A stretch of DNA of 64,000 nucleotides from Candidatus Gottesmanbacteria bacterium RIFCSPLOWO2_01_FULL_43_11b (GTDB taxonomy: Bacteria > Patescibacteriota > Microgenomatia > UBA10105 > UBA927): assembly GCA_001780985.1 (NCBI GenBank), contig MFJV01000001.1:37466-101465 (forward strand). The letters run 5' to 3'. Every line of letters begins with the position of its first letter. Positions within the stretch are counted from its first letter, which is position 1. This document shows, piece by piece, positions 9,005 to 54,233 of this stretch. The notes below the pieces were generated by a model that made no database searches, had not been told where the DNA came from, and was given only the letters and a program-made list of their open reading frames with translations. Made by a program: the position numbers and the translations under genes.

Positions 9005-9008
9005 CATA

Positions 9009-9026
9009 GAAGGTTCGCATACTTCC
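9009..9026 (+). repeat. REP-like palindromic element, copy a (GAAGGTTCGCATACTTCC)
   Basis: Exact copy of the 18-19 bp GGAAG-GTTCGCATA-CTTCC palindrome, immediately 3' of tRNA-Leu. Confidence 0.8.
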
Positions 9027-19307: not shown

Positions 19308-19787
19308 GTGAATATTGTCGTTATCATCATTGCCTCAATAATTGTTATTGCCGGTGCCCTCGCACGTCCTTCTAAAATTGAAGAGCAAGAACCAGTCCTT
19401 GGCGAAACAGCTACAGTTGAAGAAACTCCGACGCCAACTCCACAGAAGGATGCGAACCTTCCAACTATCACCCCCACCCCAACCCTGCAGCCACCCGAGA
19501 AGGATGCGAACCTTCTATGGCAGTATCCAAACAGCAGTATTATTACAAAAAGCGAGACTGCACTTATACTTGAATCCAATGGCGATGTGGATGCAATAAC
19601 CGATTGGTACAAAGAAAAAATTAAAGCCATGGGGATGAACGCAAAATCATTTGTCGTTACAAAAACGAACGGAAATGTCCTTAATAAACTTGTGGGTGAC
19701 AACGGAAACATCGAAATTCGCGTCGAAATTTCAAAATCCGCGGGTGAAAGCACTGTTCGGATTGTTGTGACCTATCATACCTCTTGA
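19308..19787 (+). CDS. Small membrane-anchored protein carrying two in-frame REP-like insertions (KDANLP) in its Pro/Thr linker
   Basis: GTG start, N-terminal TM. The two element copies are translated as QKDANLPTI and EKDANLLWQ. Confidence 0.4.
   Translation: MNIVVIIIASIIVIAGALARPSKIEEQEPVLGETATVEETPTPTPQKDANLPTITPTPTLQPPEKDANLLWQYPNSSIITKSETALILESNGDVDAITDWYKEKIKAMGMNAKSFVVTKTNGNVLNKLVGDNGNIEIRVEISKSAGESTVRIVVTYHTS
19445..19462 (-). repeat. REP-like palindromic element, copy b (GGAAGGTTCGCATCCTTC, reverse orientation)
   Basis: C-variant of the repeat loop, lying inside the coding sequence. Confidence 0.7.
19499..19515 (-). repeat. REP-like palindromic element, copy c (reverse orientation, C-variant)
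   Basis: GAAGGATGCGAACCTTC, 37 bp from copy b, in the same ORF. Confidence 0.7.
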
Positions 19788-20888: not shown

Positions 20889-20984
20889 AATCCGCTTAAG
20901 CGGAAAACGGAGTTCTGAAGTGCACTAGCCCCGCGAAGCTTTAGCGAAGTGGGGAATATACGACGAAGGGAGGTGAAAATAATA

Positions 20985-22226
20985 ATGAATAAATTATATA
21001 AACAATTCGTCTCTGTTTTGGCGACCGGGTCTTTGTTACTCAGCGTCGTTGCTCCAGTTTCAGCGACAACGCTCGAAATTTCTGGAAACGGCAGTAGTAG
21101 TGACAACGACATCACTTTTGATGTCGACCAGACCACATCAGTAACCCAGACCAATGACGCCGATGTTTACAACAACATTGATGCCGAGGCAAAAACCGGT
21201 GGGAACGATGCAAATGATAACACTGGCGGCGATGTTTCTATCGAAACGGGTGATGCCACGACTGAAGTCAAGGCTGCAACAACCGTCAATAGCAATTCCG
21301 CTTCCGTCGATTGTTGTGCAACGCAGGATGTTGACGTGCTCATTTCCGGTAACGGATCTGACAGCGACAACACGGTGGATCTTGACATAAATCAAGACTC
21401 AAAGTCTGGTACATATGTCAAACAGACGAACACTGCTGACGTGACTAATGAAGTCGATGCGGATGCAAAAACTGGCTGGAATGACGCGGAAGACAACACT
21501 GGTGGCGATGTTTCTATCGAAACCGGGGATGCTGAAACGTCAGTTACCTTATCCACAACCGCTAATGCCAACTGGGCACAGGTCGGTGATGGTGGACAGG
21601 GTAGCGCTGTCAGCTTGAAAATTCTCGGCAATGGAACCCACAGTGACAACGACATAGACTTGGATCTTGACAGTCTAATTTCTGTCATTCAATCCAATGA
21701 CGCGGATGTCTACAACGATGTTGATGCGAACGCAAAAACTGGTGGGAACGATGCCAATGACAACACTGGTGGTGATGTTTCCATCGAAACAGGTGACGCA
21801 GAAACAACAGTAGAAGTCGACAACATGGTCAACTTTAACTGGGCAGACGTTGACTGCGGATGTCTCTTTGATGTTCTCGGAAAAATAGCCGGAAACGGTT
21901 CTGATTCCGATAATACAATCACAGCAGACCTTTATCCTGAACTTTTTGTCGACCAAGACAACACTGCTTTAGGAAGTGGTGGGTTGAATAATGATATTGA
22001 TGCGGACGCAAAAACCGGCCACAACGATGCAGAAGACAACACTGGTAGCGTAGAGGGAGGAGATCCATCTATCGAAACCGGCGATGCCGAAAGTACTGTT
22101 GAAGTTTCCAACGCAGGAAACAGCAACGTCTTCGGTGAAGATGTTCCGAGTGATTGGCCAGAGTTCGAATTCAACTTCAACCTTACGTTGAGTTGGTCAC
22201 AGCTTATGGCTTTACTCGGTCTGTAA
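20985..22226 (+). CDS. Secreted tandem-repeat protein (four roughly 90-aa modules); paralog family member 1
   Basis: Strong SD GGGAGGTG. Signal peptide. Modules read ISGNGSxSDN...DADAKTGGNDAxDNTGGDVSIETGDA...VDCC. Confidence 0.55.
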   Translation: MNKLYKQFVSVLATGSLLLSVVAPVSATTLEISGNGSSSDNDITFDVDQTTSVTQTNDADVYNNIDAEAKTGGNDANDNTGGDVSIETGDATTEVKAATTVNSNSASVDCCATQDVDVLISGNGSDSDNTVDLDINQDSKSGTYVKQTNTADVTNEVDADAKTGWNDAEDNTGGDVSIETGDAETSVTLSTTANANWAQVGDGGQGSAVSLKILGNGTHSDNDIDLDLDSLISVIQSNDADVYNDVDANAKTGGNDANDNTGGDVSIETGDAETTVEVDNMVNFNWADVDCGCLFDVLGKIAGNGSDSDNTITADLYPELFVDQDNTALGSGGLNNDIDADAKTGHNDAEDNTGSVEGGDPSIETGDAESTVEVSNAGNSNVFGEDVPSDWPEFEFNFNLTLSWSQLMALLGL

Positions 22227-22323
22227 ATACCTATCGGTTCGTAGGGTGATTCTTAGGAAGCACTTCGCTAAGACACCCTACGACCGAGAAGGAAAAAAAG
22301 TTTAAAGTTTTAAAGTTAAACTA

Positions 22324-24435
22324 ATGAAGAAATTACAAAAAATAGTTTCGGTGTTAAGCGTAGGACTCTTAGTCTTTGGACAACTTGCGCCGATTGTCCG
22401 TGCTCAGGAAGCACCAACAGCTCCTACTGCGCCTTCTGCGCCTGAAGCACCGACATACGACGAACCAGCTCCCACTCCTCCTCCAGCACCGACCCTTGAG
22501 GAAGAAACAACGACTAATACTGAAGAAACACCTCCCGAAGAACAGCAAACTGAAGAAACCACTGTTACCCAAACGTCTGAAACAGAAGAAGGGGGGGAGG
22601 ACGGTTCGGGGGGAAATGTCGGTGATACAGAAATTAACACCGGTGACGCAACGACAACAGCAACAGGCATGACAGAAGCAAATAACAACTCCTCCTCCAT
22701 AGCCGATTGTTGTGAGAGCGAAGGAATAACTGTAGCAAATACAGGAAATGGGTCTGATTCTACTAATACTGGTTCAGTTGTTCTTGCTGATACAAACAAT
22801 ACCTTTCAGAATAATTCTGCAACAGTCGTAAGTGACGTCGATGGCGAGAGCAACACAGGTGACAACGATTCTTCCGGAAATGTCGGCAATACCACAATTA
22901 ATACCGGCGACGCCAATACATCCGGAACACTTATAACCGCAGTCAATACCAATGTCGACGGCATTATGGTTTCGGAGTTTAACGTTATCGACGATCATGT
23001 TGGCGATATCATCCTTGACTTTAATTCCGGCTGTATTAGCGGCTGTGGTGGCGATACAGCAATCATAAACAGCGGAAACGGATCTGATTCAACTAATACA
23101 GGAACTGCTGATATCACAAATGCTGACAACACGTTCCAGACAAATGACGCAACAGTGCTTAACGGAATGGTATTGGATTCAAATAGCGGTGACAACACAG
23201 GGGACAAGAACACTGGCGGGGACACAACTATTACAACCGGTGATGCCAATATATCTGCTAATCTTTTAACATTTGCCAACAACAACCTTTCCGGTGACGT
23301 CATCTATTCTGTTGTCAATATCTACGGAGATCTCCTGGGAGACATCATCTTCCCGGAGAGTGAATTTACAAACTGCTGCGGCACGTCAGCAACTCTGGCA
23401 AATACCGGCAATGGTTCAGATTCAACAAATACGACTGATGTAAATCTTACGAACACTGATACATCAGTTCAGAATAATGTCGCTATCATAGAAAACAATC
23501 TCGACATGGAGGCAACAAGTGGAGACAACAGTACGAGCAAAAACACCGGTGGAAACAATTCAATTACCACAGGAGATACGAGTATCGACGCACAGGTTGT
23601 TAATGTCGCAAACACAAATATTGACGGTGGAAACTGGTGGTTGGTGTTAGTGAATGAAGCAGGTAACTGGATCGGACATATATTGGGCGCAGACGGCTCA
23701 TACGCCGGATCTGTGGGAACTGAGTTTGAAGTTAATGAAGCAGGAGAGATCACAGTAACCAATAGCGGGAATGGTTCAGGATCGACCAACACGGGTACGG
23801 TCAATCAAGACACATCAAATACCACAATTCAAAATAACACTGCACACGTGGTTAATAATGTAACACTTGATGCCAACACGGGAGGCAATAGCGCGAGTAA
23901 AAATACCGGCGGCAACAGTACGATCGAAACAGGTGATGCCAATATAGTTGCCAACATCGTTAACTTCGTCAACAACAACATAATAGGCGGAGGCAAGCTA
24001 TTCGTTACGGTCATTAATGTATTCGGCAGCTGGACAGGAAACTTCCTTCCACCCGGTTTCCAAAAACCAGCGGCACAGGCAGCAAATAATCCGGAAATTG
24101 GCGGAGCAGACGTACACCAAGGATCAAACAGTCAATCAAACTCAAACTCACAATCGTCTAACTCATCCGGAAACAGCGGAAACAGTTCAACAACGACAAC
24201 TGCTACAGTTGAGACGACAGATCCGGAGGGTACAACGCAATTAACGTTTGCCGCAGGACAATTGGGGAGTGTCCATATATTAGGTACAACCACCACTGAT
24301 GATGCGGAACCGGTTACCCAGGGCCGTCAGGTAGTCCAAATAAATCTTGCATGGTTGCTTTTGTTGATACCATGTGCTATACTCCTCGTCGTGTTGCGCC
24401 GATTACGACGTAACGCATCTGCCACTGCCTCCTAA
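22324..24435 (+). CDS. Secreted tandem-repeat protein (703 aa) with a C-terminal hydrophobic anchor; paralog family member 2
   Basis: Signal peptide, a Pro/Ala/Thr/Glu-rich region, repeated NTG-D-NTGGN-I-TGDA modules with CC/CxC pairs. C-terminal LLLIPCAILLVVLRRLRRN. Confidence 0.55.
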   Translation: MKKLQKIVSVLSVGLLVFGQLAPIVRAQEAPTAPTAPSAPEAPTYDEPAPTPPPAPTLEEETTTNTEETPPEEQQTEETTVTQTSETEEGGEDGSGGNVGDTEINTGDATTTATGMTEANNNSSSIADCCESEGITVANTGNGSDSTNTGSVVLADTNNTFQNNSATVVSDVDGESNTGDNDSSGNVGNTTINTGDANTSGTLITAVNTNVDGIMVSEFNVIDDHVGDIILDFNSGCISGCGGDTAIINSGNGSDSTNTGTADITNADNTFQTNDATVLNGMVLDSNSGDNTGDKNTGGDTTITTGDANISANLLTFANNNLSGDVIYSVVNIYGDLLGDIIFPESEFTNCCGTSATLANTGNGSDSTNTTDVNLTNTDTSVQNNVAIIENNLDMEATSGDNSTSKNTGGNNSITTGDTSIDAQVVNVANTNIDGGNWWLVLVNEAGNWIGHILGADGSYAGSVGTEFEVNEAGEITVTNSGNGSGSTNTGTVNQDTSNTTIQNNTAHVVNNVTLDANTGGNSASKNTGGNSTIETGDANIVANIVNFVNNNIIGGGKLFVTVINVFGSWTGNFLPPGFQKPAAQAANNPEIGGADVHQGSNSQSNSNSQSSNSSGNSGNSSTTTTATVETTDPEGTTQLTFAAGQLGSVHILGTTTTDDAEPVTQGRQVVQINLAWLLLLIPCAILLVVLRRLRRNASATAS

Positions 24436-24453: not shown

Positions 24454-25038
24454 ATGAAATTTTTCTTATCTATTATTTCATTTCTTCTTGCCGGATATTT
24501 TTTTGCAACCGCAATACACGCGGATGAATTTATTATTGAAGGCAATGCAGATGGAAGTGAAAATTCCATAAACTTCGAGTCGTCTTCACAAACAAACGTC
24601 ACGCAATCTAACCAAATGGATGTAAATAACCAAGTTGATGCCGATGCCAACACAGGTGGGAACAACACTGATGGTGGTTCCGTAGAAACCGGCGATGCGT
24701 CGGTCTGGGTACAAATCAAAAATTTCTTTAACTGGAATCAAGCAGATGTTGACGACTGTTGCCCGGAAGGCGTTACGCCAACCCCAACAGTCTACGATCC
24801 CGGTAAACCCACACCAACACCAACCACAGCCCCTGGAGTTGGAGGACCAGGACCATCCAATGGAGATGGCGGAAATGGTGGGGGAGGAAACGGTGGAGGC
24901 GGTGGTGCCGGAGAAGTACTTGGACTTTCAGCTGCAGCGGGTGAACCGACGACAGAAATCCTCTTCTACACTTTGGGTGCGCTATGCCTAGCCCTCGGAG
25001 GCGCCATGTTGCGCCAACCAAAAAATCTTCTCTCATAA
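24454..25038 (+). CDS. Small secreted repeat-family protein (one module) with a PT/Gly linker and a C-terminal hydrophobic anchor; paralog 3
   Basis: Signal peptide. Module NADGSENSINFES...DADANTGGNNTDGGSVETGDAS...DDCC. C-terminal TM plus RQPKN. Confidence 0.5.
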   Translation: MKFFLSIISFLLAGYFFATAIHADEFIIEGNADGSENSINFESSSQTNVTQSNQMDVNNQVDADANTGGNNTDGGSVETGDASVWVQIKNFFNWNQADVDDCCPEGVTPTPTVYDPGKPTPTPTTAPGVGGPGPSNGDGGNGGGGNGGGGGAGEVLGLSAAAGEPTTEILFYTLGALCLALGGAMLRQPKNLLS

Positions 25039-25643
25039 TAGCTTGGATTTCTTCCCATCGTCGCACAGTTGGTTTATGGTTTCTCATGCTCGGATTCCTT
25101 TTTGTCACGTTTCCGACTGCCTACAAAACTCTCTACACAGGAACATTAACACCTCCACAGGCTTCTCTAGAAACATCATCTTCAACAACAAACATTTTTG
25201 ATTTTGGCCCGATTCGCATTGACCAAAAACTCTTAGGTTTAACTGTTCCTTCTCAACAACCTCTTCGCATTGTGATTCCTTCGCGAAAAATTGATCTCTC
25301 TGTTGTTGAAGCACCTGTTATCAACGGGTACTGGGAACTTTCTGAAACAACCGCTTCTCATGGCGTAGGATCGGCTAATCCGGGTGAAATCGGCAATACC
25401 GTCATCTTTGCTCATGCCAGAGAGGGTCTCTTTTTACCTATTCGGGACATTCAAGTGAGTGAGGTTATCTATGTACTCACCAAAGACCGCTGGTATCGCT
25501 ATACAGTGGCTCAGACACAGCTTGTAGATCCCAATCAGGTAGAAGTTATCGCTCCCACCCCAGACGAAACGCTCACTCTTTTCACCTGCTCCGGTTTCTT
25601 CGATACCAAGCGTTTGATTGTAATTGCGAAGCCACAACGATAG
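24984..25643 (+). CDS. Sortase (second copy)
   Basis: N-terminal TM, catalytic His VIFAHA, active-site TLFTCSG. Its stop TAG lies within a REP-like element. Confidence 0.6.
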   Translation: MPSPRRRHVAPTKKSSLIIAWISSHRRTVGLWFLMLGFLFVTFPTAYKTLYTGTLTPPQASLETSSSTTNIFDFGPIRIDQKLLGLTVPSQQPLRIVIPSRKIDLSVVEAPVINGYWELSETTASHGVGSANPGEIGNTVIFAHAREGLFLPIRDIQVSEVIYVLTKDRWYRYTVAQTQLVDPNQVEVIAPTPDETLTLFTCSGFFDTKRLIVIAKPQR

Positions 25644-25660
25644 AAGGTTCGCATACTTCC
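25643..25660 (+). repeat. REP-like palindromic element, copy d (GAAGGTTCGCATACTTCC)
   Basis: Exact copy, overlapping the sortase stop codon. Confidence 0.8.
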
Positions 25661-27102: not shown

Positions 27103-27675
27103 ATGTCAATAAGTTTTGAGGGGCAGCAAACTGATGAACGAATATTGGCTGAAATTCGCTCATACGCGTTGAGTAAATACATTGCCATTGTAAAAATAAT
27201 CTTGCTGTCCGTTTTCTTCTATTTTGTATTGCGTTCTATAGGTAACGTCGTTCCCCAATTTGCCTCTCTTCTCACTATTTTCGGTTCACTCTTTTCTCTC
27301 GCTCTTTTTGTTATCGGCACATGGTGGAATAATCTTGTGTATACCCGTGACCGCACGTATATTACAGATCGGCGCATTATCCGCTTTGATCAGGTTTCTC
27401 CGTTTTTTAGAACCAAACGCGAACTATTCTGGAATGAGGCATTAAAAGCAAAAGGCTATGCACCCAATCTCTTCTTTCGCATGATGAAAGTGGGAACGCT
27501 TGAGGTAGATCCTATCATGGGGGAGAGAGAAAACGTTATAGTTAAGGATGTGTATTATTTTGAGGATTTAGCAAATTATATTGATAAAATTCTCTATACG
27601 TTTAAAAACAAACCTGTTGAAATTGCTGCAATACAACCATTTGTTGCCAAACCCCGGGGACAAAGAGACACATAG
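27103..27675 (+). CDS. Hypothetical membrane protein (2 TM)
   Basis: ORF with two hydrophobic helices. Its stop TAG is part of a REP-like element. Confidence 0.4.
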   Translation: MSISFEGQQTDERILAEIRSYALSKYIAIVKIILLSVFFYFVLRSIGNVVPQFASLLTIFGSLFSLALFVIGTWWNNLVYTRDRTYITDRRIIRFDQVSPFFRTKRELFWNEALKAKGYAPNLFFRMMKVGTLEVDPIMGERENVIVKDVYYFEDLANYIDKILYTFKNKPVEIAAIQPFVAKPRGQRDT

Positions 27676-27691
27676 AAGGTTCGCATACTTC
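27675..27691 (+). repeat. REP-like palindromic element, copy e, between convergent stop codons
   Basis: CATAGAAGGTTCGCATACTTCTA overlaps the stop of 27103-27675 (+) and the stop of the RAYT gene (-). Confidence 0.8.
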
Positions 27692-28386
27692 TATTCTTCG
27701 CCTCTATCGATAATATAGTTTTCTATCACCTTCGCTTCTTGTTCTGAAATAACCGCATCCACAAACTCTTTATATCGATTCGGCAACCCCTTAAAATACG
27801 AAAGTACCAAATCCGTACTCGTTACTTGTTGGAAGGTTCGCATACTTCCAATCGCATACACACGGTAATCGCTGAATAACCAATGTTCAGGTTTCTGTAC
27901 TAACCCAGCAACTACCGGATTCAAATGAATGTACCGAACTACTTGTAAAAGATCTGGGTCGCTAGGGATATTTTTGATTTTGAATCTTCCCTGAAAAATA
28001 GCTCCTTCACGATTATACTTTTTATTAAACTTGTGGCTGTACGTAATACACAGCCTTCGCACCAACTCCGGTATTGGTTGAAAGGAGACGGGATTTGTTT
28101 CTGCTTTTTGTTGAATCAAAAGATGAAAATGATTAGGCATAAGACAATAAGCGAGTACGGAAAGTAAAGACTTAAATAATCCGTTGCTTTTTGGATCGGC
28201 TTTATACGTGACAGGAACTGGAAGGTTCGCATCCTTCTTCTCCGGAAAACCAGCAACAAGATATCGAAGAATATCTTCAAAACTATGGTAATCCTCTGAA
28301 TCTAAAAACGTTGGAAGCTTCGCGACCCCTCTGTTGTATATATGATAGACTCCGTGTTCGAAGTATTCTGGTCGAAAATGGGGCAT
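27691..28386 (-). CDS. IS200-like HUH tyrosine transposase of the REP-associated (RAYT/TnpA-REP) type
   Basis: YHIYNRG, HUH motif MPNHFHLL, and the C-terminal catalytic-Tyr region RYIHLNPVVAGLV...HWLFSDY resemble E. coli RayT/YafM. Flanked by REP-like copies at both ends and containing two more (GSMRTF, KDANLP) in-frame. Start taken at the internal ATG (MPHFRP); the TTG-extended ORF would absorb copy h. Confidence 0.65.
   Translation of the reverse strand: MPHFRPEYFEHGVYHIYNRGVAKLPTFLDSEDYHSFEDILRYLVAGFPEKKDANLPVPVTYKADPKSNGLFKSLLSVLAYCLMPNHFHLLIQQKAETNPVSFQPIPELVRRLCITYSHKFNKKYNREGAIFQGRFKIKNIPSDPDLLQVVRYIHLNPVVAGLVQKPEHWLFSDYRVYAIGSMRTFQQVTSTDLVLSYFKGLPNRYKEFVDAVISEQEAKVIENYIIDRGEE
27831..27849 (+). 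repeat. REP-like palindromic element, copy f (inside the RAYT gene)
   Basis: GGAAGGTTCGCATACTTCC, translated on the minus strand as GSMRTF. Confidence 0.8.
28220..28237 (+). repeat. REP-like palindromic element, copy g (inside the RAYT gene, C-variant)
   Basis: GGAAGGTTCGCATCCTTC, translated as KDANLP. Confidence 0.75.
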
Positions 28387-28390
28387 TAAT

Positions 28391-28409
28391 GGAAGGTTCG
28401 CATACTTCC
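28391..28409 (+). repeat. REP-like palindromic element, copy h (just upstream of the RAYT start)
   Basis: GGAAGGTTCGCATACTTCC, 5 nt upstream of the ATG. Confidence 0.8.
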
Positions 28410-28422
28410 ATCGTGTAGTCAA

Positions 28423-30324: not shown

Positions 30325-32100
30325 ATGGTGTACAATAAAATTATGAACGACGAACAATTAACCAATTTGCGTCACTCTGCTGCACATCTACTTGCCAAAG
30401 CGGTCAAGGAATTATGGCCTGGAGCACACAACGCAATTGGCCCCGCCATTGAAAACGGGTTTTATCAGGATTTTGATATGGGTGACCATAAAATTTCTGA
30501 AGAGGACTTTCCCAAAATTGAAGCGAAAATGAGAGAAATTCTTCCCACCTGGCAAAAATTCTCATTCAACGAAGTCACACTCGCAGAAGCCAAGAAATTA
30601 TTTAAAGACAATAAATATAAAGTGGAAATGGCAACTGAATTTGCTAAAGAGGGCAAAAAACTCATGACCAACGATCCGGGCGACTTTTTGGATCTTTGCA
30701 AAATGGGTCACGTAGAAAACCCATCAAAAGAACTTATTCACTTCAAGCTTCTTTCAGTTGCCGGCGCCTACTGGCGGGGGAGTGAAAAGAATAAGATGCT
30801 CACAAGAATTTACGGCACCTGCTGGCCGTCTCAAAAAGAACTCGATTCCTACCTTCATCAACTCGAAGAAGCCAAAAAACGCGACCACAGAAAGCTCGGA
30901 AAAGACCTTGGGTTGTTCGTATTCTCAGATCTTGTTGGTGCTGGACTCCCGCTTCTCACGCCGAAAGGCGCAACAATCCGGCGGATTCTGGAGCGATTCA
31001 TAGTGGATGAGGAGCTCAAACGCGGCTACAGCCATGTGTATACCCCTCCTCTTGCTAAAGTCGATTTATACCGAACTAGCGGTCATTATCCTTACTACAA
31101 AGAGACGATGTACCCGTCGATGAAAATAGATGAGGATGAGCTCATTTTGCGCCCTATGACTTGTCCTCATCACTTTATGCTTTACAAATCCGAACCAAGA
31201 AGTTATCGCGACCTTCCTATCCGATATGCCGAAATTTCGCCACAATTCAGATACGAAAAAAGCGGAGAACTCACAGGGCTTATGAGGGTTCGTACATTCA
31301 TGCTTTCTGATGCGCATATTATTACCCAGCCTGAAAATGCAAAAAGTGAAATCAGGAAGGTTCTTGATCTTATCGACTATGTGAACAAATCTTTGGGACT
31401 TACACGTGGTCGCGATTATCGCTACCGACTCTCACTTGGCGACAGAAATGAAGAGATAAAATACCAGAAGGATGACGCTGCATGGGATAAGGCAGAAGCC
31501 ATTCTTCGTCAAGTGCTCGATGAAGTAAAAGCGCCCTATTTTGAAGCGCCAAACGAGGCGGCATTTTATGGACCAAAAATAGACGTACAGATTAAAAACG
31601 TCAACGGGAAAGAAGATACTGCATTTACAGTTCAGTATGACTTCGTCATGCCGAAACGCTTTAAACTTACATACATCGATCAGTCAGGCAAAGAAGTACA
31701 GCCGGTTGTGGTGCACAGAGCCTCCCTGGGCGCTTTTGAACGAACGATAGCGTTCCTTATTGAGAAGTACGCGGGAGCGTTCCCTTTGTGGCTCGCGCCC
31801 GTTCAGGTTGAGGTCATTCCTATTGCCGAACGGCACAATAAAGCCGCTCTAGAGGCCGTAGAGAGGCTAAAAACGGTAGATATACGGGCAGAGGCAGATA
31901 CAAGGAATGAACCTATGCAGGCTAAAGTGAGAAATCATGCGTTGCAAAAAGTGCCATATCTGGCTATAATCGGAGATCAGGAGTTAAAAAATCAGACCCT
32001 CGCAATTCGTACGCGGGGAGGTAAGGATCTCAAAGGGCTAACCTTTGAGGATTTCCTTGCCAAGCTCAAAGAAGAGATTGAAGCCAAGCTACCAACGTAA
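30325..32100 (+). CDS. thrS: Threonyl-tRNA synthetase (compact form lacking the N-terminal TGS domain)
   Basis: HSAAHLLAKA editing-site motif and class II aaRS motifs (FRYE, GLTRG). Alternative start at 30343. Confidence 0.85.
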   Translation: MVYNKIMNDEQLTNLRHSAAHLLAKAVKELWPGAHNAIGPAIENGFYQDFDMGDHKISEEDFPKIEAKMREILPTWQKFSFNEVTLAEAKKLFKDNKYKVEMATEFAKEGKKLMTNDPGDFLDLCKMGHVENPSKELIHFKLLSVAGAYWRGSEKNKMLTRIYGTCWPSQKELDSYLHQLEEAKKRDHRKLGKDLGLFVFSDLVGAGLPLLTPKGATIRRILERFIVDEELKRGYSHVYTPPLAKVDLYRTSGHYPYYKETMYPSMKIDEDELILRPMTCPHHFMLYKSEPRSYRDLPIRYAEISPQFRYEKSGELTGLMRVRTFMLSDAHIITQPENAKSEIRKVLDLIDYVNKSLGLTRGRDYRYRLSLGDRNEEIKYQKDDAAWDKAEAILRQVLDEVKAPYFEAPNEAAFYGPKIDVQIKNVNGKEDTAFTVQYDFVMPKRFKLTYIDQSGKEVQPVVVHRASLGAFERTIAFLIEKYAGAFPLWLAPVQVEVIPIAERHNKAALEAVERLKTVDIRAEADTRNEPMQAKVRNHALQKVPYLAIIGDQELKNQTLAIRTRGGKDLKGLTFEDFLAKLKEEIEAKLPT

Positions 32101-32122
32101 ATTTTACAAGCTAAACTACCAA

Positions 32123-32605
32123 ATCACGAGTCCGCAGGTGCGGCTTTTGGATGAGGCAGGGAAGCAAATCGGCGTTGTCAGTAAACTTGAGGCGCTGCAA
32201 AAAGCCAAAGAAGCTGGCATAGACGTCGTTGAAATTGCGCAGAATGCAAAGCCGCCGGTGGCAAAGCTTATTGATTTTAAAAAATTTAAGTATCAGGAGT
32301 CCAAAAAGGAGCGGGAAAGCAGAAAGAGCCAGAAAAATGTCGGTGTTAAAGAAATCAGGCTTCGGCCATTTATCGGCGCTCACGATTTTAATACACGGGT
32401 AGCAAAAGGAAAAGAGTTTCTAAAAGACGGTAATCAGGTAAAATTGAGCGTATTTTTCCGGGGTCGGGAGATTACAAGAAAAGAATTCGGGTACGATATC
32501 ATGAAGCGCTATATTGGGCAGATGGAATCGATCAAAGTCGTCAGAGAACCGCATATGGAAGGAAGGACACTCGTAGCAATGCTCGTTAATGTCAAAAAAT
32601 CATGA
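32123..32605 (+). CDS. infC: Translation initiation factor IF-3; the start is non-canonical and uncertain (ATC at 32123 or GTG at 32138)
   Basis: VRLLDEAGKQIGVVS...AKPPVAKLIDFKKFKYQ is typical of IF-3. There is no in-frame ATG after the thrS stop, consistent with the AUU/AUC autoregulatory starts known for infC. Confidence 0.7.
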   Translation: MTSPQVRLLDEAGKQIGVVSKLEALQKAKEAGIDVVEIAQNAKPPVAKLIDFKKFKYQESKKERESRKSQKNVGVKEIRLRPFIGAHDFNTRVAKGKEFLKDGNQVKLSVFFRGREITRKEFGYDIMKRYIGQMESIKVVREPHMEGRTLVAMLVNVKKS

Positions 32606-32796
32606 AAGTTAAAACGAAAAAAATTGTTTCAAAACGATTTAAAGTTACCGGAACCGGTAAAATTATGCACCGGGTGCAGGGAGCACGGCATCTTCGGAGG
32701 AAAAAAAGTAAAAGGAGACAGCGAAGACAGGATAAAATGGTTCAAGTAACCACACGAGCGTTTGAACGAAACATTGCCCGATTTCTTGATGTCTAA
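32602..32796 (+). CDS. rpmI: Ribosomal protein L35
   Basis: MKVKTKKIVSKRFKVTGTGK. ATGA overlap with infC. Confidence 0.85.
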   Translation: MKVKTKKIVSKRFKVTGTGKIMHRVQGARHLRRKKSKRRQRRQDKMVQVTTRAFERNIARFLDV

Positions 32797-32798
32797 CT

Positions 32799-33149
32799 AT
32801 GAGAATAAAACGGGGAGTAACCAGTCACGCCAAACATAAAAAATTACTGCGATCAACAAAAGGCTATCGCATGACCAAGCGCCGGCTCGTTCGTGTAGCT
32901 CGGGAAGCCTATCTTCATGCGGGTGAATATGCATTTGCAGGGAGAAAAAACCGGAAGCGCGATTTCCGAAGACTGTGGATTACAAGAATTTCCGAGGCAG
33001 TCAAACTACGGGGACTCTCATACAGTTCATTTATCCATAAACTTAAAGAAGCAAACATTGAACTCGACCGGAAGGTACTTGCAGATCTCGTCGTCGAAGA
33101 CCCTGAAGTTTTCGAAGAAGTTCTTGATGAAGTAAAATCAGTGAATTGA
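32799..33149 (+). CDS. rplT: Ribosomal protein L20
   Basis: MRIKRGVTSHAKHKKLL...RDFRRLWITRI. Confidence 0.9.
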   Translation: MRIKRGVTSHAKHKKLLRSTKGYRMTKRRLVRVAREAYLHAGEYAFAGRKNRKRDFRRLWITRISEAVKLRGLSYSSFIHKLKEANIELDRKVLADLVVEDPEVFEEVLDEVKSVN

Positions 33150-33154
33150 TTCTT

Positions 33155-33180
33155 GTCATTCCGGGCTTGACCCGGAATCC
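33155..33180 (+). repeat. Second palindromic repeat family, copy 1 (GTCATTCCGGGCTTGACCCGGAATCC)
   Basis: Stem ATTCCGGG / CCCGGAAT around a CTTGA loop, 5 nt after the rplT stop. Confidence 0.7.
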
Positions 33181-33217
33181 GCCTCATTTCCTTCTTGACC
33201 TATTATCACTCCCAGTA

Positions 33218-33243
33218 CCCCGCACAAGCGGGGTTTATTTTTT
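33218..33243 (+). terminator. Intrinsic terminator (CCCCGC-ACAA-GCGGGG + T-run) between rplT and pheS
   Basis: Perfect 6-bp GC stem followed by TTTATTTTTT. Ends the thrS-infC-rpmI-rplT unit or attenuates pheST. Confidence 0.7.
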
Positions 33244-33275
33244 GGAGCGTAAAACGTACAATAAAATAGATTGAT

Positions 33276-34376
33276 ATGGCGGAAGAAATTATATCGGCGA
33301 CGAATTTAATTAGTTTGCTTATTCAGGCTCAAGAGGAAGCGCTTGAGCTTATTAAATCGGGTAGTAAATCAAGTGAAGAACTTCGACTGCTAATTTTAGG
33401 GGCAAAAAGCGATATCGCTCGTCTCACCAAACAAATCCGGCTTGTTTCCAAAGAAGAACGGCAAAAGGTGGGGCCGGTTGTAACTCAAGTTAAACGGTCG
33501 ATCGAAGAAGCCCTCGGACAACTACCGACCCGGAATGTATCAAAAGAATGGATTGACGTTACTATGTCCGGGATTCGTCCTCCCCAAGGGCACCTTCACA
33601 TTGTCTCGCAGGCAATCATAGAAATCACGAGAATTTTTGAGCGTATTGGGTTTACCCGCGTACGGCATCCGGAGGTTGACTGGGACTGGTATGCGTTTGA
33701 ATCCCTCAATATGCCGGCAAATCATCCGGCACGGGATGAATGGGAAACGTTTTTTATAGAGTCTTCTTTGTCATTCCGGCCGTTGAGCCGGAATCCATCA
33801 TCGAGAAAAACCCGGATCCCGGGTCGAGCCCAGGATGACAATCAGCATATTGTTCTGACTCCCCATACATCCAACGGACAGGTTCGGGAAATGGAAAAAA
33901 AGAATTTACCTATACGGATGATTAACATTGCAAAATGTTACCGCAGACAATCAGATGTATCACATGTCCCCATGTTTCATCAATTCGAGGGATTATATAT
34001 AGACAGAAGTGTTTCCATCGGGCACCTGAAAGGTGTTCTTGATTATTTTGTTAAACAATTTTTCGGGCCTCAAAGAAAGTCGCGTATCAGACCATTTCAT
34101 TTTCAATTTACTGAACCGTCGTTTGAAGTCGATATAACGTGCGGAGTCTGTTTAGGAAAAGGTTGTAAACTCTGTAAGTCCGGCTGGCTGGAATTAGGTG
34201 GTGCAGGCATGGTACACCCTGAAGTTCTCAAAAACGGTGGTATTGATCCTGAAAAATATTCAGGTTTTGCGTTCGGATGGGGAATAGAGCGAACCTACAT
34301 GATGAAAGCAGGAACACAACTAGACGATATAAGATTATTGTATTCAAACGATATACGTTTCTTAGAACAATTTTAA
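33276..34376 (+). CDS. pheS: Phenylalanyl-tRNA synthetase alpha subunit carrying an in-frame insertion of about 25 aa derived from a palindromic element
   Basis: HPARDEWETF...HVPMFHQFEGL, FTEPSFEV and GLGLERT-like motifs. The insertion SSLSFRPLSRNPSSRKTRIPGRAQDDNQ sits where E. coli PheS has only TTR. Confidence 0.85.
   Translation: MAEEIISATNLISLLIQAQEEALELIKSGSKSSEELRLLILGAKSDIARLTKQIRLVSKEERQKVGPVVTQVKRSIEEALGQLPTRNVSKEWIDVTMSGIRPPQGHLHIVSQAIIEITRIFERIGFTRVRHPEVDWDWYAFESLNMPANHPARDEWETFFIESSLSFRPLSRNPSSRKTRIPGRAQDDNQHIVLTPHTSNGQVREMEKKNLPIRMINIAKCYRRQSDVSHVPMFHQFEGLYIDRSVSIGHLKGVLDYFVKQFFGPQRKSRIRPFHFQFTEPSFEVDITCGVCLGKGCKLCKSGWLELGGAGMVHPEVLKNGGIDPEKYSGFAFGWGIERTYMMKAGTQLDDIRLLYSNDIRFLEQF
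33770..33839 (+). repeat. Inverted pair of second-family palindromic units inserted in-frame within pheS
   Basis: GTCATTCCGGCCGTTGAGCCGGAATCC (33770-33796), then a 17-nt spacer, then the reverse-oriented unit GGATCCCGGGTCGAGCCCAGGATGAC (33814-33839). Both closely match copy 1 at 33155. Confidence 0.7.
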
Positions 34377-34381
34377 AATTT

Positions 34382-36280
34382 ATGAATATTTTGGTTCCTG
34401 ATTCATGGCTTCGTGAATACCTTAAAACGAAAGCTACTCCTTCTCAAATAAAAGAGTATCTGTCGCTTTGCGGTCCTTCTGTTGAAAGGATTACTAAAGA
34501 CAGGGTCTATGAAATTGAAATCACGTCAAATAGACCGGATAGCATGTCAATTTTTGGTGTTGCGAGAGAGGCAGCCGCGATATTACCCCGCTTCGGAATT
34601 CCGGCCAAATTAGCCCTACAAGGAGTCTCCTTGAAGGGCAAGGAGAGTCACCAACGGAAACTTAAACTTACGGTAAAGACTGATTCAAAACTCAATCCCC
34701 GCTGGACATCGGTTGTGTTCGATGATGTCAATGTCGGGGTATCTCCGAAATGGCTTTCAGAGTGGTTGGAACTCTCAGGTATCAGGTCAATAAATAATGT
34801 CATTGATGTAACAAACTTTCTCATGCGCGCGTTCGGCCAGCCGGCTCATGTCTTTGACTATGATACAATCTCCGGTCACAGTATGAAACTTCGTGCTTCC
34901 AAAAAAAGAGAAAAGATTACAACGCTTGATGGAAAAACACATACGTTACCCGGCGACGACATTGTGATTGAAGATGGGTCGGGAAAACTAATTGATCTAT
35001 GCGGAATTATGGGGGGAAAGAATTCTTCTGTAACGGATAAAACTACCCGCGTCATCCTGTTTTTACAAACCTATGATCCGTCCCACATTCGGAAAACATC
35101 AATGATGGTATCACACCGTACTGAAGCTGCAAGTCTTTTTGAAAAAGGACTTGATACTGAATCTATTATGCCGGTCTTTCTCAAAGGCGTTTCCATGATG
35201 CAGGAGTTGACTGGTGGAAAAATTGCAAGCGCAGTTACTGATATGTATCCGTCACCGTACAAATCTAACATCGTTTCAGTAAACCTATCAAAAATAGTTT
35301 CATACATCGGTGATATAACAGAGGCAGAAATCAAAAAAATTCTTGAACCGTTAGGATTTACGGTAAAAAAGGATTTGCATGTTGTTGTACCTAGTTTTCG
35401 TCGTGATGTCACTCTCGATGTCGATATTATTGAAGAAATTGCCAGAATTTACGGTTATCACAACATTACATCAACTCTTCCTAAAGGAGAACTCCCAATG
35501 ACAATACAAAATCCGATGTTATTTTGGGAGGAAGAAACAAAAATTCGATTACGTGACTGGGGATACACTGAACTTTTAACATATTCCATGATTTCAGAAG
35601 AACAAATGGATACTTTTGTATTAGATAAATCTAAAGCATATAAAATATCAAATCCTTTATCCAATGAATGGCTCTATATGCGACCGAGTCTTCTTCCTTC
35701 AGTACTTTCCGCGGTCAAACAAAATTTGAATATCCGTGAAGACTTAAAGTTATTTGAATTATCGTTTGTTTATGAGCTCAGACAAAACGATTTACCTCTC
35801 GAAAAACCAATGCTCATCGTTGTCTGGACAGGGAAAAAATATCCGGAAGCAAAAGGATTAGCGGAGGCGCTTTTCGATGTATTTGGTATTCCGTTTCCGG
35901 AAGCCATCAAGGAGTATGGATCAATTGAAATACTAGCTGGTGAAATAACGGTATTATATTTGGATTTTTCCCGGCTTGTTGCAAATGCTAAGCCAATAAA
36001 AACCTACAAACCCATTCCCAAATATCCGCCCATTGTTGAAGACCTTGCATTTGTTGTACCGGAACAATTCGAAGTCGGTCCGCTTATTGCGCTACTCAAA
36101 AAAGCTCACCCACTCGTTTTTCATGTCAGCCTCCTCGACGTCCATGGAAGTATGCGAACCTTCCATATTGAATATCAGAATTCGAAGAAGAATTTAACAA
36201 ACGAATATGTTACCCCAATCCGTGAAAAACTGATTCGTCTGGCCGAAGAAAAATTTGGTGTAACAATTAAAAACCCCTAG
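34382..36280 (+). CDS. pheT: Phenylalanyl-tRNA synthetase beta subunit (compact, about 632 aa) with a 6-aa REP-derived insertion near the C-terminus
   Basis: Begins MNILVPDSWLREYL. B3/4 and B5 regions recognisable. GSMRTF at the C-terminal domain is encoded by REP-like copy i. Confidence 0.8.
   Translation: MNILVPDSWLREYLKTKATPSQIKEYLSLCGPSVERITKDRVYEIEITSNRPDSMSIFGVAREAAAILPRFGIPAKLALQGVSLKGKESHQRKLKLTVKTDSKLNPRWTSVVFDDVNVGVSPKWLSEWLELSGIRSINNVIDVTNFLMRAFGQPAHVFDYDTISGHSMKLRASKKREKITTLDGKTHTLPGDDIVIEDGSGKLIDLCGIMGGKNSSVTDKTTRVILFLQTYDPSHIRKTSMMVSHRTEAASLFEKGLDTESIMPVFLKGVSMMQELTGGKIASAVTDMYPSPYKSNIVSVNLSKIVSYIGDITEAEIKKILEPLGFTVKKDLHVVVPSFRRDVTLDVDIIEEIARIYGYHNITSTLPKGELPMTIQNPMLFWEEETKIRLRDWGYTELLTYSMISEEQMDTFVLDKSKAYKISNPLSNEWLYMRPSLLPSVLSAVKQNLNIREDLKLFELSFVYELRQNDLPLEKPMLIVVWTGKKYPEAKGLAEALFDVFGIPFPEAIKEYGSIEILAGEITVLYLDFSRLVANAKPIKTYKPIPKYPPIVEDLAFVVPEQFEVGPLIALLKKAHPLVFHVSLLDVHGSMRTFHIEYQNSKKNLTNEYVTPIREKLIRLAEEKFGVTIKNP
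36146..36164 (-). repeat. REP-like palindromic element, copy i (reverse orientation) inside pheT
   Basis: GGAAGTATGCGAACCTTCC; 18 nt in-frame, giving GSMRTF. Confidence 0.8.
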
Positions 36281-36289
36281 CCCGTACGT

Positions 36290-37483
36290 ATGAAGAAAAC
36301 CATTGTTGTTGGTGTAACCGGAGGGATTGCGGCGTATAAGATGGTTGAGCTTGTCGAAAAATTGAAAACACAGGGAAATCGGACGGTTGTGGTCATGACA
36401 CCGAGTGCGATGAAGATTACATCCTCCAAAGATTTTGAAAAAGCATCCGGAGAAAAAGTCATCAGTGAATTATTTCAAAAAAACTTTGATTACAGAAAAA
36501 TACTGAAAGCGCGAAAAGTCGAACATATTAGTTTGGTACAATCAGCCAATCTTATTGTTATCGCTCCGGCAACAGCAAATATCATTGCAAAACTTGCGCA
36601 GGGAATTGCAGATGATTATCTAACCACAAGTATACTTGCTGCAACATGTCCTATTATCATTTGTCCTTCGATGAACGTGTATATGTGGCATCATCCTGCA
36701 ACGCAAAAAAATATTTCAATTCTTAAATCTTTCGGTTACCACATTATTGATCCTGATTCGGGAATGCTTGCATGCGGCTATGAAGGGCAGGGAAGGCTCG
36801 CAGCAATCGAAACGATTTTGCAGCAAATTAACAATTTAACAAAATTAACGAAACAACTTCAAGGGAAAAGGATAGTAGTTACCGCCGGCGGAACCAGGGA
36901 ACCGATTGATGATGTCCGCTTTATTACGAATAAAAGTTCAGGCAAAATGGGAGCTGCAATTGCCGAAAGCGCGTATTTGCGGGGAGCTGATGTATTGCTT
37001 CTTCGTGCAAAAACGTCTGTTAAACCGCGACTGGATATAAAGGAAAAACTTTTTGAAACTGCGGATGATTTAGAAAAATTATTATTAAAAGAAATTCGTG
37101 ACTACGATATTTGTATCCACACTGCCGCTGTGTCGGATTTTTCTATAAAGAATATTAAAGGAAAGTTATCGAGTGATGAAAAACATACGGTTATTTTAGA
37201 ACCGCGTCAAAAAATTCTTGATCAAATAAAAAGAGTAAACCCAAAAATATTTCTTGTCGCTTTTAAAGCTGAAGTCGGATTATCGGATAAACAACTCCTT
37301 GAAAAAGCGAGAAAAATTCAAGCAAACATGATTGTTGCTAATCACGTAGGCAGATCTGACCGGGGTTTCGAATCCGATAACAATGAAGTGTTTATCCTTG
37401 GTAAAACCATCCGTCATGTTCTGCTCTCCCCAAAATCTGTCGTTTCCGAAATAATACTCGATGAAATCGTTCGCGCCTGCTAA
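36290..37483 (+). CDS. coaBC: Bifunctional phosphopantothenoylcysteine decarboxylase / phosphopantothenate-cysteine ligase
   Basis: N-terminal flavoprotein domain (VGVTGGIAAYK, PAMN-like) and C-terminal CoaB domain. Confidence 0.85.
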   Translation: MKKTIVVGVTGGIAAYKMVELVEKLKTQGNRTVVVMTPSAMKITSSKDFEKASGEKVISELFQKNFDYRKILKARKVEHISLVQSANLIVIAPATANIIAKLAQGIADDYLTTSILAATCPIIICPSMNVYMWHHPATQKNISILKSFGYHIIDPDSGMLACGYEGQGRLAAIETILQQINNLTKLTKQLQGKRIVVTAGGTREPIDDVRFITNKSSGKMGAAIAESAYLRGADVLLLRAKTSVKPRLDIKEKLFETADDLEKLLLKEIRDYDICIHTAAVSDFSIKNIKGKLSSDEKHTVILEPRQKILDQIKRVNPKIFLVAFKAEVGLSDKQLLEKARKIQANMIVANHVGRSDRGFESDNNEVFILGKTIRHVLLSPKSVVSEIILDEIVRAC

Positions 37484-52307: not shown

Positions 52308-52850
52308 TTACTGCCGCGTCACAACAGTTGTTTGAAACTGTGTACTGGCCTTTTCAAATTGAGCTTCCGGCGTTCCAAGTTGTGATAGGGTAAACAGTAT
52401 TTGAATCTCCTTTTTTTCCTCGGCAATATCAGTGCAGATAAATGTGAGTGCGTTCGTACAAGAACTACCTAACGTAACGTTCTGATTTGTCAGGTATTCG
52501 GTTCTTGTTGCGCTTGTCGACGCAATACGTGCAATGGTGCCGTCCATTTGGCAGTCAAATGTTGTCGAATTTCCGTCAGTATTTAATAGTGAGAGGGATG
52601 ACGTTGTGGTACCCCCGGAACTACATGTCGTCGTAACCGATGAGGCATTTCGAATCATTCGTGACATCACGCTTAATGAGAAATCTCCGTTTTGCTTAAC
52701 CGTCGTCAAAAGATTTGTTTTGATATTAGTTCGCACCATGCTAAAAAAGCTTTGAGCAATCACCGAACCAACAATAGCAATAATACCCACGGAAACCAGT
52801 ATTTCAATAAGGGTAAAACCCCGCCAGTGGGCGGGCTGGCTTTTTTTCAT
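52308..52850 (-). CDS. Type IV prepilin-type protein (class III signal RG|FTLIE)
   Basis: MKKSQPAHWRGFTLIEILVSVGI; cleavage motif and Glu+5. Confidence 0.65.
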   Translation of the reverse strand: MKKSQPAHWRGFTLIEILVSVGIIAIVGSVIAQSFFSMVRTNIKTNLLTTVKQNGDFSLSVMSRMIRNASSVTTTCSSGGTTTSSLSLLNTDGNSTTFDCQMDGTIARIASTSATRTEYLTNQNVTLGSSCTNALTFICTDIAEEKKEIQILFTLSQLGTPEAQFEKASTQFQTTVVTRQ

Positions 52851-53289: not shown

Positions 53290-53781
53290 CTATTGGAATC
53301 CTCCGTCGGTGATCGTACCGTTCACTTCAACAACTATGTCGTAATTATGATTAAATCCGGAGACTGTTATTGTGACTGAATTATTTATATTCACTAACCC
53401 CCGCGTTAATACTCCGAATATAAGTGTCGTGGGAACGGGTACAAAAGACGTTGTGGTAGGGAGTGTTACATTCGTTATTGAGCCCACAAGCCCTTCAGGA
53501 GTACATTGTGCTTGGATACTATAGGAAGACTGGGTAAAGTTTACTGTGTAGCCGGTTAGTTCTGTGCAGCCGCTGGTTGGTTTTACACCGGATTGCGCCC
53601 TACTTTGTGCAAGACGTAAATTTGCTTTCACTGTTTGAGCTGTCTGTTTGACAACTTGGCTTTGGTTGTAGTTGTTGTAACTAATAAGTAACCCGCCCAA
53701 TAGAAGCATCAGGACTCCTATGGAAACAAGGAGCTCAATAAGGGTAATACCAAAGCAGCGTGGAATGTGACGATTCGTCAT
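53290..53781 (-). CDS. Type IV prepilin-type protein (CFG|ITLIELLVSI)
   Basis: Class III signal plus Glu+5. Confidence 0.6.
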   Translation of the reverse strand: MTNRHIPRCFGITLIELLVSIGVLMLLLGGLLISYNNYNQSQVVKQTAQTVKANLRLAQSRAQSGVKPTSGCTELTGYTVNFTQSSYSIQAQCTPEGLVGSITNVTLPTTTSFVPVPTTLIFGVLTRGLVNINNSVTITVSGFNHNYDIVVEVNGTITDGGFQ

Positions 53782-54233
53782 GGACTTTTTAATCCGTAAT
53801 TGTGGGAATTAACCGTATCGGGTGTGCAGGTATCGGTGGGGTTCTCCGTTTCAATGAGACTGCTTACGCAGTAACCGTAATAGTTACCGCTTACTAAGTT
53901 GGTTGCCTGATAGCGATAAACCTGAGTAGTACTTTTCGGGTCGCTGGGAATCGCTGCCATGTAACTTGAAACAAGTGTTGCAGATAAGTTACTTGCATCC
54001 GTCCAGCTGCCGCTTCCCGTATTTGGATACCCCCCGTTATCGGATCTGTACATTTCCAAAGCAGATCGGATCTGCTCCATATCGCTTTTCCGTTTTGTAT
54101 CACGGCTTCTTTTGTTGATATTGGTGTAGGAAACAATGCCGATAGCGGTAAGAACGGAAATTATGGTTGCGGTTACCAGAACTTCAACAAGTGTAAATCC
54201 CCGCCAGTGGGCGGGCTGGCTGTTTTTTTTCAT
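53778..54233 (-). CDS. Type IV prepilin-type protein (RG|FTLVEVLV)
   Basis: Shares a near-identical leader-coding stretch of about 35 nt with the gene at 52308-52850. Confidence 0.65.
   Translation of the reverse strand: MKKNSQPAHWRGFTLVEVLVTATIISVLTAIGIVSYTNINKRSRDTKRKSDMEQIRSALEMYRSDNGGYPNTGSGSWTDASNLSATLVSSYMAAIPSDPKSTTQVYRYQATNLVSGNYYGYCVSSLIETENPTDTCTPDTVNSHNYGLKSP

Follow-up and report, generated by a model that had tools for sequence, protein, structure and literature searches.

A TGTC-tagged REP dimer lying in frame in a variable loop of PheS in a Candidatus Gottesmanbacteria genome

We analysed a 64-kb stretch of DNA (contig MFJV01000001.1; the whole stretch is hereafter called the window) from a tiny-genome member of Candidatus Gottesmanbacteria (Microgenomates, Patescibacteria/Candidate Phyla Radiation, CPR), in which a pair of inverted palindromic units of the repetitive extragenic palindrome (REP) type lies within pheS, the gene for the alpha chain of phenylalanyl-tRNA synthetase (PheRS). 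The gene order rplT-pheS-pheT-coaBC is common to the window and its nearest relative (L005, with PheS P0004), and PheS of the window is OGG23659.1. The rplT stop codon is at 33147–33149, and the features that follow it are:

33154–33181, plus strand: unit A, an extragenic singlet, TGTC-ATTCCGGG-CTTGA-CCCGGAAT-CCG
33217–33244, plus strand: an intrinsic-terminator-like hairpin with a T run, between unit A and pheS
33276–34376, plus strand: pheS, the host gene, 366 aa, with domains PF02912 and PF01409
33759–33848, plus strand: codons E162–H191 of the expanded PheS loop, ESSLSFRPLSRNPSSRKTRIPGRAQDDNQH
33769–33797, plus strand: unit B, left arm of the dimer in pheS, TGTC-ATTCCGGC-CGTTGA-GCCGGAAT-CCA
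33798–33812, plus strand: spacer of 15 nt between the tails of B and C, TCATCGAGAAAAACC
33813–33840, minus strand: unit C, the inverted right arm of the dimer, TGTC-ATCCTGGG-CTCGA-CCCGGGAT-CCG

Two independent ENA assemblies matched the window at 100% over 13.6 and 21.1 kb, and a strain variant with a one-residue difference in PheS still had the insert. An assembly artefact was therefore excluded, the same sequence being present in the ENA assemblies and in the NCBI genome.

The three units are 28–29 nt long, lie no more than 700 nt apart and follow one plan: a TGTC head, an 8-bp stem starting with AT, a loop of 5–6 nt and a CCA or CCG tail. Unit A begins 4 nt past the rplT stop codon, upstream of the terminator-like hairpin; its head is at 33154–57, the two sides of its stem (ATTCCGGG and CCCGGAAT) are at 33158–65 and 33171–78, and folded alone it forms a perfect 8-bp hairpin. 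It is an ordinary extragenic singlet of the same REP family as the dimer. Units B and C form a heads-out dimer of 72 nt (TGTCAT...ATGACA, 33769–33840). A and C are 86% complementary over 29 nt, and the loop of B is 1 nt longer than that of A. The dimer can fold either into two small hairpins or into one long B–C hairpin, the latter being the minimum-free-energy structure (−30.5 kcal/mol, z = −2.3). An earlier note on this DNA had placed three copies here, two of them as an inverted pair in frame in pheS; its positions were right to within 1–2 nt, and the pair is the heads-out dimer of B and C, with the frame kept.

Since a simple mismatch search misses copies, units were sought with degenerate patterns and a custom scanner: with unit A as query and up to three mismatches, only A itself was matched, the copies differing by an indel or by four mismatches. 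A degenerate unit pattern matched A and C (0.00 expected from 100 shuffles), a looser regular expression added B, and nothing else credible was found within the 64-kb window by regular expression or scanner. On the minus strand, at 33836–33816, unit C is followed by a T run derived from the spacer (CCGGGTTTTT); this segment, inside pheS and antisense to it, is terminator-like by a consensus scan.

The dimer is in the pheS reading frame and encodes L165–D188, 24 aa, in agreement with the 'about 25' of the earlier note. Unit B reads L165-S-F-R-P-L-S-R-N-P and unit C, in plus-strand reading, ..R-I-P-G-R-A-Q-D-D. The dimer can be read without a stop in only one of its three sense frames, the one that pheS uses. 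Its peptide is basic and rich in Ser and Pro, and the predicted tryptic peptides unique to it include NPSSR and AQDDNQHIVLTPHTSNGQVR. A Rfam scan of 32000–36500 gave no match at E ≤ 1, and no intein or intron signature was found at the insert; an insert of 24 aa is far below the size of an intein.

The loop was mapped by sequence alignment to solved PheRS chains and not from predicted structure. AlphaFold2, run with 34 and then with 82 sequences, reached mean pLDDT (predicted local distance difference test) values of 54 and 62, and no three-dimensional claim is therefore made for the loop from these weak models. It is flanked by the strands ..ETFFI and IVLTPHTS and lies between motifs 1 and 2 of the class II synthetases. 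Among 120 orthologs (66–83% identity), the segment from ..WETFF. to ..LTPHTS was 3–40 residues long between invariant flanks, and solved PheRS alpha chains aligned by HMMER in two blocks, with the break exactly at the insert, so that the earlier placement in a variable loop holds. The nearest ortholog (L005/P0004, 83% identity overall and 90% over the catalytic core) has the loop T-K-N (ETFFL-TKN-IVLTPH), without insert, and no unit was found anywhere in its 7.6-kb locus. The window loop is 27 aa longer than this one and 16 aa longer than the commonest loop of the clade (14 aa). At the insert position, PheS of E. coli, P. aeruginosa and S. haemolyticus has 2–4 residues; for E. coli, where the earlier note gave only TTR, the segment is indeed short and reads D-T-T-R (PDB 3pco_A, residues 149–178). 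Set against the nearest ortholog and the solved PheRS structures, the dimer is an insertion in these alignments. The earlier note named as contrary evidence a segment common to all close orthologs and without repeat signature elsewhere; in the alignment, the nearest ortholog is without it, and the signature does recur elsewhere. PheS of T. thermophilus (1b70_A, 155–172) has 18 extra residues at the insert point compared with S. haemolyticus, and an active enzyme is thus compatible with a variable length here.

A superfamily of CGTC-tagged REPs was described by Di Nocera, De Gregorio and Rocco in 2013 (PMC3733652). According to these authors, its unit is a stem-loop of 20–40 bp, tagged at one end by an unpaired CGTC (or by the accepted variants TGTC and CCTC), with stems of 8–9 bp whose first pairs are A-T then T-A, loops of 4–5 nt and a short unpaired tail, mostly CCA. 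Units are found mainly as oppositely oriented dimers with spacers of 20–100 nt, and as singlets just 3′ of open reading frames (ORFs). The CGTC families were equated with Neisseria dRS3 (CGTC-1) and with the Rickettsia palindromic elements RPE-4/-6 (host R. conorii), and CGTC-1 units of Coxiella are also included. In-frame CGTC-1 dimers of 20–30 aa are known in genes that include those for GlyRS-beta and IleRS. Five host phyla were reported, Patescibacteria not among them, and as of 2013 these REPs were without a known dedicated transposase (PMC3733652).

All three window units (3/3) have the TGTC head, and their stems (ATTCCGGG, ATTCCGGC, ATCCTGGG) are all of 8 bp. Their loops are of 5, 6 and 5 nt, the 6-nt loop being just beyond the published range, and their tails are CCG, CCA and CCG. 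Stem columns 1–2 were invariant (AU, UA) in 11/11 units aligned from the window and its relatives. The B/C dimer has its heads out and 15 nt between the tails, which may be what the term 'HH' of that paper denotes. The peptide signatures RHSRAGGNP, VIPA.AG.. and IPAFAGMT, given in its supplement for in-frame CGTC-1 dimers (PMC3733652), are also seen in relatives.

An exact scan of GTDB genomes for GTCATTCCGG-N5-9-CCGGAATCC gave at least 120 loci. The matches listed came from Pseudomonadota, Chloroflexota, Patescibacteria, Planctomycetota, Bacteroidota, Bacillota, Actinomycetota, Nitrospirota and others. Among them, the custom scanner found 202 units (0 for a control head), with CCA as the tail in 180/202 and loops of 4 nt (135), 5 nt (38) or 6 nt (14), and 46/56 adjacent pairs were heads-out. 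The base before GTCAT at 114 dimer ends was C in 66 and T in 46. Copy number was 3 units per 64 kb in the window and 9 units per 9.3 kb in the relative L146. A literature search found no description of REPs in CPR genomes.

By tag, stem, loop and tail, the unit family appears to be one already known and pan-bacterial, and the window dimer a CGTC/TGTC-tagged REP dimer that behaves like the in-frame palindromic elements of Rickettsia. The 'second palindromic family' of the earlier note is distinct from the other family of the window (GGAAGGTTCGCATACTTCC, below) but is not new, because the units fit the CGTC/TGTC-tagged REP superfamily and the pattern spans many phyla. The kind of element, and in-frame REP dimers in genes including those of aminoacyl-tRNA synthetases, were known; new here are Patescibacteria as the phylum of the host, PheRS as the enzyme concerned, and a recurrence in the same PheS and PheT loops with stem conservation at the nucleotide level.

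Conservation of the element was examined in relatives. L001 (Gottesmanbacteria, 81% core identity to the window) has the same dimer type at the same PheS position. Between it and the window, identity at third codon positions was 23/29 in the loop versus 98/242 for the remaining pheS codons (Fisher p = 1e-4). The stems of the two dimers were identical at 31/32 positions, the heads at 8/8 and the loops at 7/11; the spacer was largely diverged and 3 nt shorter in L001, so that the frame was kept. Similarly, the pheT dimers of L001 and L146 (76% PheS core identity) had identical stems (32/32) and differed in only one loop and one tail. In 11 units (five pheS dimers and unit A), 87/88 stem cells were paired. 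Four of the eight stem pairs changed on both sides, in 16 cells compared with 6.0 ± 1.6 after shuffling (0/500 shuffles reached this number). Conservation thus acts on the nucleic acid, that is on tags and stems at all codon positions, and not on the protein.

CGTC-type dimers were found in the PheS loop of 16/120 orthologs, scattered over the neighbour-joining tree and read in three frames (LSF/LSS.., RHS/CHS.. and VIP..), with frame and open reading intact in every insert-bearing lineage. The dimers of the window, L001, L003, L137, L146 and L132 all follow a remnant of the ancestral loop codons (..G-S-P, TCTYC). Their common position after this remnant makes them positional homologs with different, mutually compensated stems. 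In L132, the 7-bp stems are kept around loops grown to 20 and 14 nt; L146 and L137 carry the exact dRS3-like ATTCCCGCG..CGCGGGAAT core. The presence of the insert did not track PheS similarity: L005, closest to the window, is without it, and L132, closest to L001 (89.6%), carries another dimer type. The argument that different frames prove independent insertions was considered and downgraded, as junction indels could shift the frame at a shared position. The pattern may reflect one old insertion with precise losses or replacements, repeated site-specific insertion, or lateral exchange.

A second loop, in PheT before ..VPSFRRD, holds CGTC units of different subfamilies in four lineages (L001, L146, L137, L153). 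The in-frame CGTC-type REPs in pheT of these relatives are located as follows:

L001, 8988–9059
L146, 6540–6611
L137, 12214–12240, one unit only, with heads at both of its ends
L153, 12179–12241 and 12773–12829

PheT of the window has the shortest version of the VPSFRRD-adjacent loop, without a unit. The distribution of units was counted in 934 kb of non-redundant Microgenomates loci containing 34 credible units:

pheS: 10 units in 79 kb
pheT: 10 units in 117 kb
thrS: 1 unit (doubtful) in 65 kb
infC, rplT and penicillin-binding protein genes: 0 units in 124 kb
elsewhere: 13 units in the remainder, several of them abutting pheS or pheT

Units were therefore enriched about five-fold in pheST in the sampled loci, a figure to be taken as a lead, because sampling was centred on pheS and the events, few in number, in part share their ancestry. 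It is possible, and we suggest it only tentatively, that the REP dimer is no random passenger and has a 'fixed address' in this clade, the same nucleotide position in the PheS loop and one PheT loop holding different covarying subfamilies in several lineages, with enrichment in pheST. If so, either site-specific insertion and precise excision by a trans-acting enzyme, or selection for a hairpin in the PheRS genes, would be at work, and the first of these would offer a handle on the mobilisation of CGTC-type REPs.

Other sequences were seen in the PheS loop. Further palindromes are present in L153/L158 and L160, for example CCCTCTCC-loop-GGAGAGGG, with a 9-bp stem, read as SPLKGEGQGE. Loop peptides of the type ..RSTPGVE.. 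were observed in P0003, P0007, P0016 and P0097, ..PSAKATAG.. or ..PASRADLE.. in P0060, P0062, P0106 and P0043, and ..NVQSQYTSEV..VRTSG.. in P0046, P0085, P0091 and P0118; several 7-aa or 26-aa motifs of the loop resemble translated hairpins. The loop thus seems to gather several unrelated repeat families. A different kind of addition was seen in many close PheS homologs of 583–634 aa (P0036, P0041, P0042, P0048, P0050, P0063 and others), which have an extra N-terminal domain of about 240 aa. It is AlaX-like, with matches to PF01411/PF07973 (the AlaRS core and second additional domain), and represents a fusion, as distinct from an insert in the loop; for PheRS alpha, fusion to an editing domain of the AlaX type is unusual.

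Taken together, we consider it likely that 33769–33840 is a heads-out TGTC-tagged REP dimer that was inserted as DNA and persists as a translated passenger in a variable loop of PheS. The dimer would have entered, or would turn over, as DNA through a trans-acting enzyme. At 57 dimers, target-site duplication was not observed, flanking direct repeats of 2, 3, 4 and 5 nt being at chance or close to it, with 0, 3, 1 and 0 versus 3.6, 0.9, 0.2 and 0.06 expected, and no target motif was found beyond the YGTC head. This is compatible with single-strand 'peel and paste' handling of the HUH/Y1 type and does not prove it. The dimer would persist because its length is a multiple of three, the sole stop-free sense frame is the one used and the loop tolerates extra residues; for these same reasons translation would add about 24 residues, probably disordered, to an active PheRS alpha.

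Several points weigh against this interpretation. The window contains three units only, all of them clustered. No transposase is linked to the TGTC/CGTC family in the window: a RAYT-like gene (RAYT, REP-associated tyrosine transposase) about 5 kb from the units is flanked and interrupted by the GGAAGGTTCGCATACTTCC family and not by CGTC units, and the route of the dimer into pheS is for this reason inferred. Translation of the insert and activity of the PheRS are likewise deduced from sequence. In both AlphaFold2 runs, most of the catalytic domain (about 92–237) had pLDDT below 50, and the set used for covariation was partly found by a scanner that requires hairpins. Finally, near-perfect stems despite saturated synonymous sites exceed the expectation for a neutral passenger, which points to function or ongoing homogenisation.

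The RAYT-like gene and the copies of the GGAAGGTTCGCATACTTCC family around it, two at its ends and two inside the ORF, are:

27691–28422, minus strand: RAYT-like Y1 transposase gene, PF01797 at 29.1 bits (cut-off 23)
27669–27697, 27826–27854, 28215–28243 and 28386–28414: GGAAGGTTCGCATACTTCC copies

The best NCBIfam match of this ORF was NF047646, 'REP-associated tyrosine transposase' (64 bits, cut-off 80), and it has the HUH (LMPNHFHLL) and YIHxNP (VRYIHLNPV) motifs. Translated, the copies at the gene give WKYANLP, KDANLPVP and GSMRTFQ; their arrangement is that of the classic 'RAYT flanked by its own REPs', yet here with REPs within the ORF. The gene was considered as transposase of the CGTC units and rejected, as it belongs with the GGAAGGTTCGCATACTTCC family and tblastn found no homolog of it in the other fetched loci.

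The GGAAGGTTCGCATACTTCC family has nine copies in the window versus 0.04 expected, the others being:

9008–9026, 19444–19462, 19498–19516 and 25642–25660: further copies of 19 nt
36141–36165: a perfect copy in pheT (34382–36280), in frame near the C-terminus of PheT, HGSMRTFH

Some copies are at gene ends, the one at 25642 overlapping the stop codon of ORF 24984–25643; those at 19444 and 19498 are 54 nt apart, in a region where ORFs overlap on both strands. The pheT copy is complementary to 28389–28411 at 23/23 nt. It adds no length, relatives having HESTRTLH in the same columns (15/24 nt common with L005), and the repeat unit therefore replaced native codons one for one.

As a rival explanation, the dimer might be kept as a functional nucleic-acid element, either an mRNA hairpin tuning pheST translation, stability or alpha:beta stoichiometry or a site for a DNA- or RNA-binding protein, with the peptide as a tolerated by-product. 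Such a role would fit the conservation of stems and tags at all codon positions while loops and spacer drift, the compensatory stem changes among positional homologs, the concentration of units in and beside pheS and pheT, and the proposal that REPs near ORF ends are post-transcriptional elements (PMC3733652, PMC12306157). However, about 85% of the 120 orthologs, and the nearest relative, do without a unit in the loop, so the element is dispensable; it has no Rfam match, its folding z-score is just −2.3, and gene conversion among copies or re-insertion from a conserved pool could also account for the stems. We regard this explanation as decidedly unlikely. Rather unlikely, in our estimate, is that the insert, instead of transposing in this genome, arrived with or is exchanged through a pheS segment that passes by homologous recombination among co-occurring lineages of Gottesmanbacteria. 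The window and L001 share dimer type, position and left flank (GAGTCTTCT) at 81% core identity, their closest relatives differ from them (L005, 90%, has no insert and L132, 89.6%, another one), and nucleotide identity between window and L001 peaks at 84–92% just upstream of and across the insert. Yet in the left 40 codons, third-position identity was 23/40 versus 19/40 for the nearer relative (p = 0.5), it was low in the right flank (12/40), and the divergence of loops and spacer is close to that of synonymous sites, so that any transfer was not recent.

Selection at the protein level, with the segment an old lineage-specific insertion serving tRNA or partner binding and the palindromic DNA incidental, appears highly improbable. 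The basic, Ser/Pro-rich peptide, the position of the loop in the catalytic domain and the natural Thermus insert at the same place would suit it, but conservation is at the nucleotide level including third positions, the same DNA unit is found extragenically 600 nt upstream and in many phyla, relatives read it in different frames as unrelated peptides (LSF.., RHS.., VIP..), and it is found patchily among close orthologs. As hairpins may give rise to errors of assembly, we also considered that the segment is an artefact or is absent from the mature message or protein (intron, intein or bypass). Nothing was found in favour of this, and it is barely credible given the identical independent assemblies, the homologous inserts in many other assemblies, the lack of intein or intron signature and of a Rfam match, and the frame and open reading kept in every lineage.

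If the reading as an inserted and translated REP dimer is right, 'selfish DNA read as protein', known in Rickettsia and some Proteobacteria, would now extend to the Candidate Phyla Radiation. It would be a clean case, in an essential aminoacyl-tRNA synthetase, with an empty site in a near relative and conservation at the nucleotide level. For CPR annotation, odd low-complexity inserts (..SFRP..RNP.., RHSR.GGNP.., VIP..AG.., ..GNDK) would get a simple explanation. Should the preference for pheS and pheT be real, this clade would be a good place to seek the mover of CGTC-type REPs.

Two other repeat-bearing regions of the window were noted. A 58-nt repeat lies in a block of minus-strand genes:

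52790–52847, 54170–54227 and 59764–59821: copies of the 58-nt repeat
53721–53778: a weaker copy

A GC-rich hairpin (CCCGCC-AGTG-GGCGGG) with a T run behind it forms its end, and the copies could be either a third repeat family or the conserved, terminator-bearing ends of genes. The very large ORFs at 12250–17772 and 20949–24435 (of 1840, 425 and 703 aa) contain many internal tandem and dispersed repeats with periods of about 260–285 and 330 nt; they probably encode repetitive surface proteins beside a sortase-like gene.

Compared with the published CGTC/TGTC REPs (PMC3733652), the window units have the same YGTC head and 8-bp stem beginning A-T then T-A, resemble them in the short loop and CCA-type tail, and likewise include a dimer of opposite orientation, a singlet just 3′ of an ORF and an in-frame copy in an aminoacyl-tRNA synthetase gene. 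They differ in that the host belongs to Patescibacteria/CPR, PheRS is absent from the host genes listed in that paper, the loops are of 5–6 instead of 4–5 nt, copy number in 64 kb is very low, and several lineages carry units in the same two loops, of PheS and of PheT. Like the RPEs of Rickettsia (PMC10969869, PMC3733652), the dimer is palindromic, non-autonomous, in frame and apparently read through in an essential or housekeeping protein, at the kind of structurally permissive place that such elements are thought to occupy in a reduced genome. The likeness is one of behaviour (in frame in a conserved protein, absent from orthologs), any relatedness resting on the equation with RPE-4/-6 made in the paper. 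In contrast to RPE-1, which is about 100–150 bp long and has a conserved peptide, the window element is a 72-bp dimer of 28-nt units, of a type read in different frames by lineage, and its stems are conserved, not its peptide.

With the REPIN–RAYT system, in which REP doublets form hairpins (Bertels and Rainey 2011, PMC3116915), the dimer shares the inverted doublet folding as one hairpin, the occurrence of singlets, the lack of target-site duplication and a RAYT-like gene in the same window; however, its head is YGTC (TGTC/CGTC) and not GTAG, and the RAYT-like gene is flanked by the other repeat family. Miniature inverted-repeat transposable elements (Correia/NEMIS, ERIC, RUP) are also short and non-coding, with terminal inverted symmetry, and are sometimes intragenic and in frame, whereas in the window dimer there is no target-site duplication, the 'terminal repeats' are complete hairpin units and there is no resemblance to insertion sequence ends. 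A further parallel is the natural length variation of the PheRS alpha loop, as in T. thermophilus (PDB 1b70), where an extra segment occupies the same position of the fold in an active, crystallised enzyme; that segment has no known repeat origin, whereas the extra residues of the window PheS would be translated repeat DNA.

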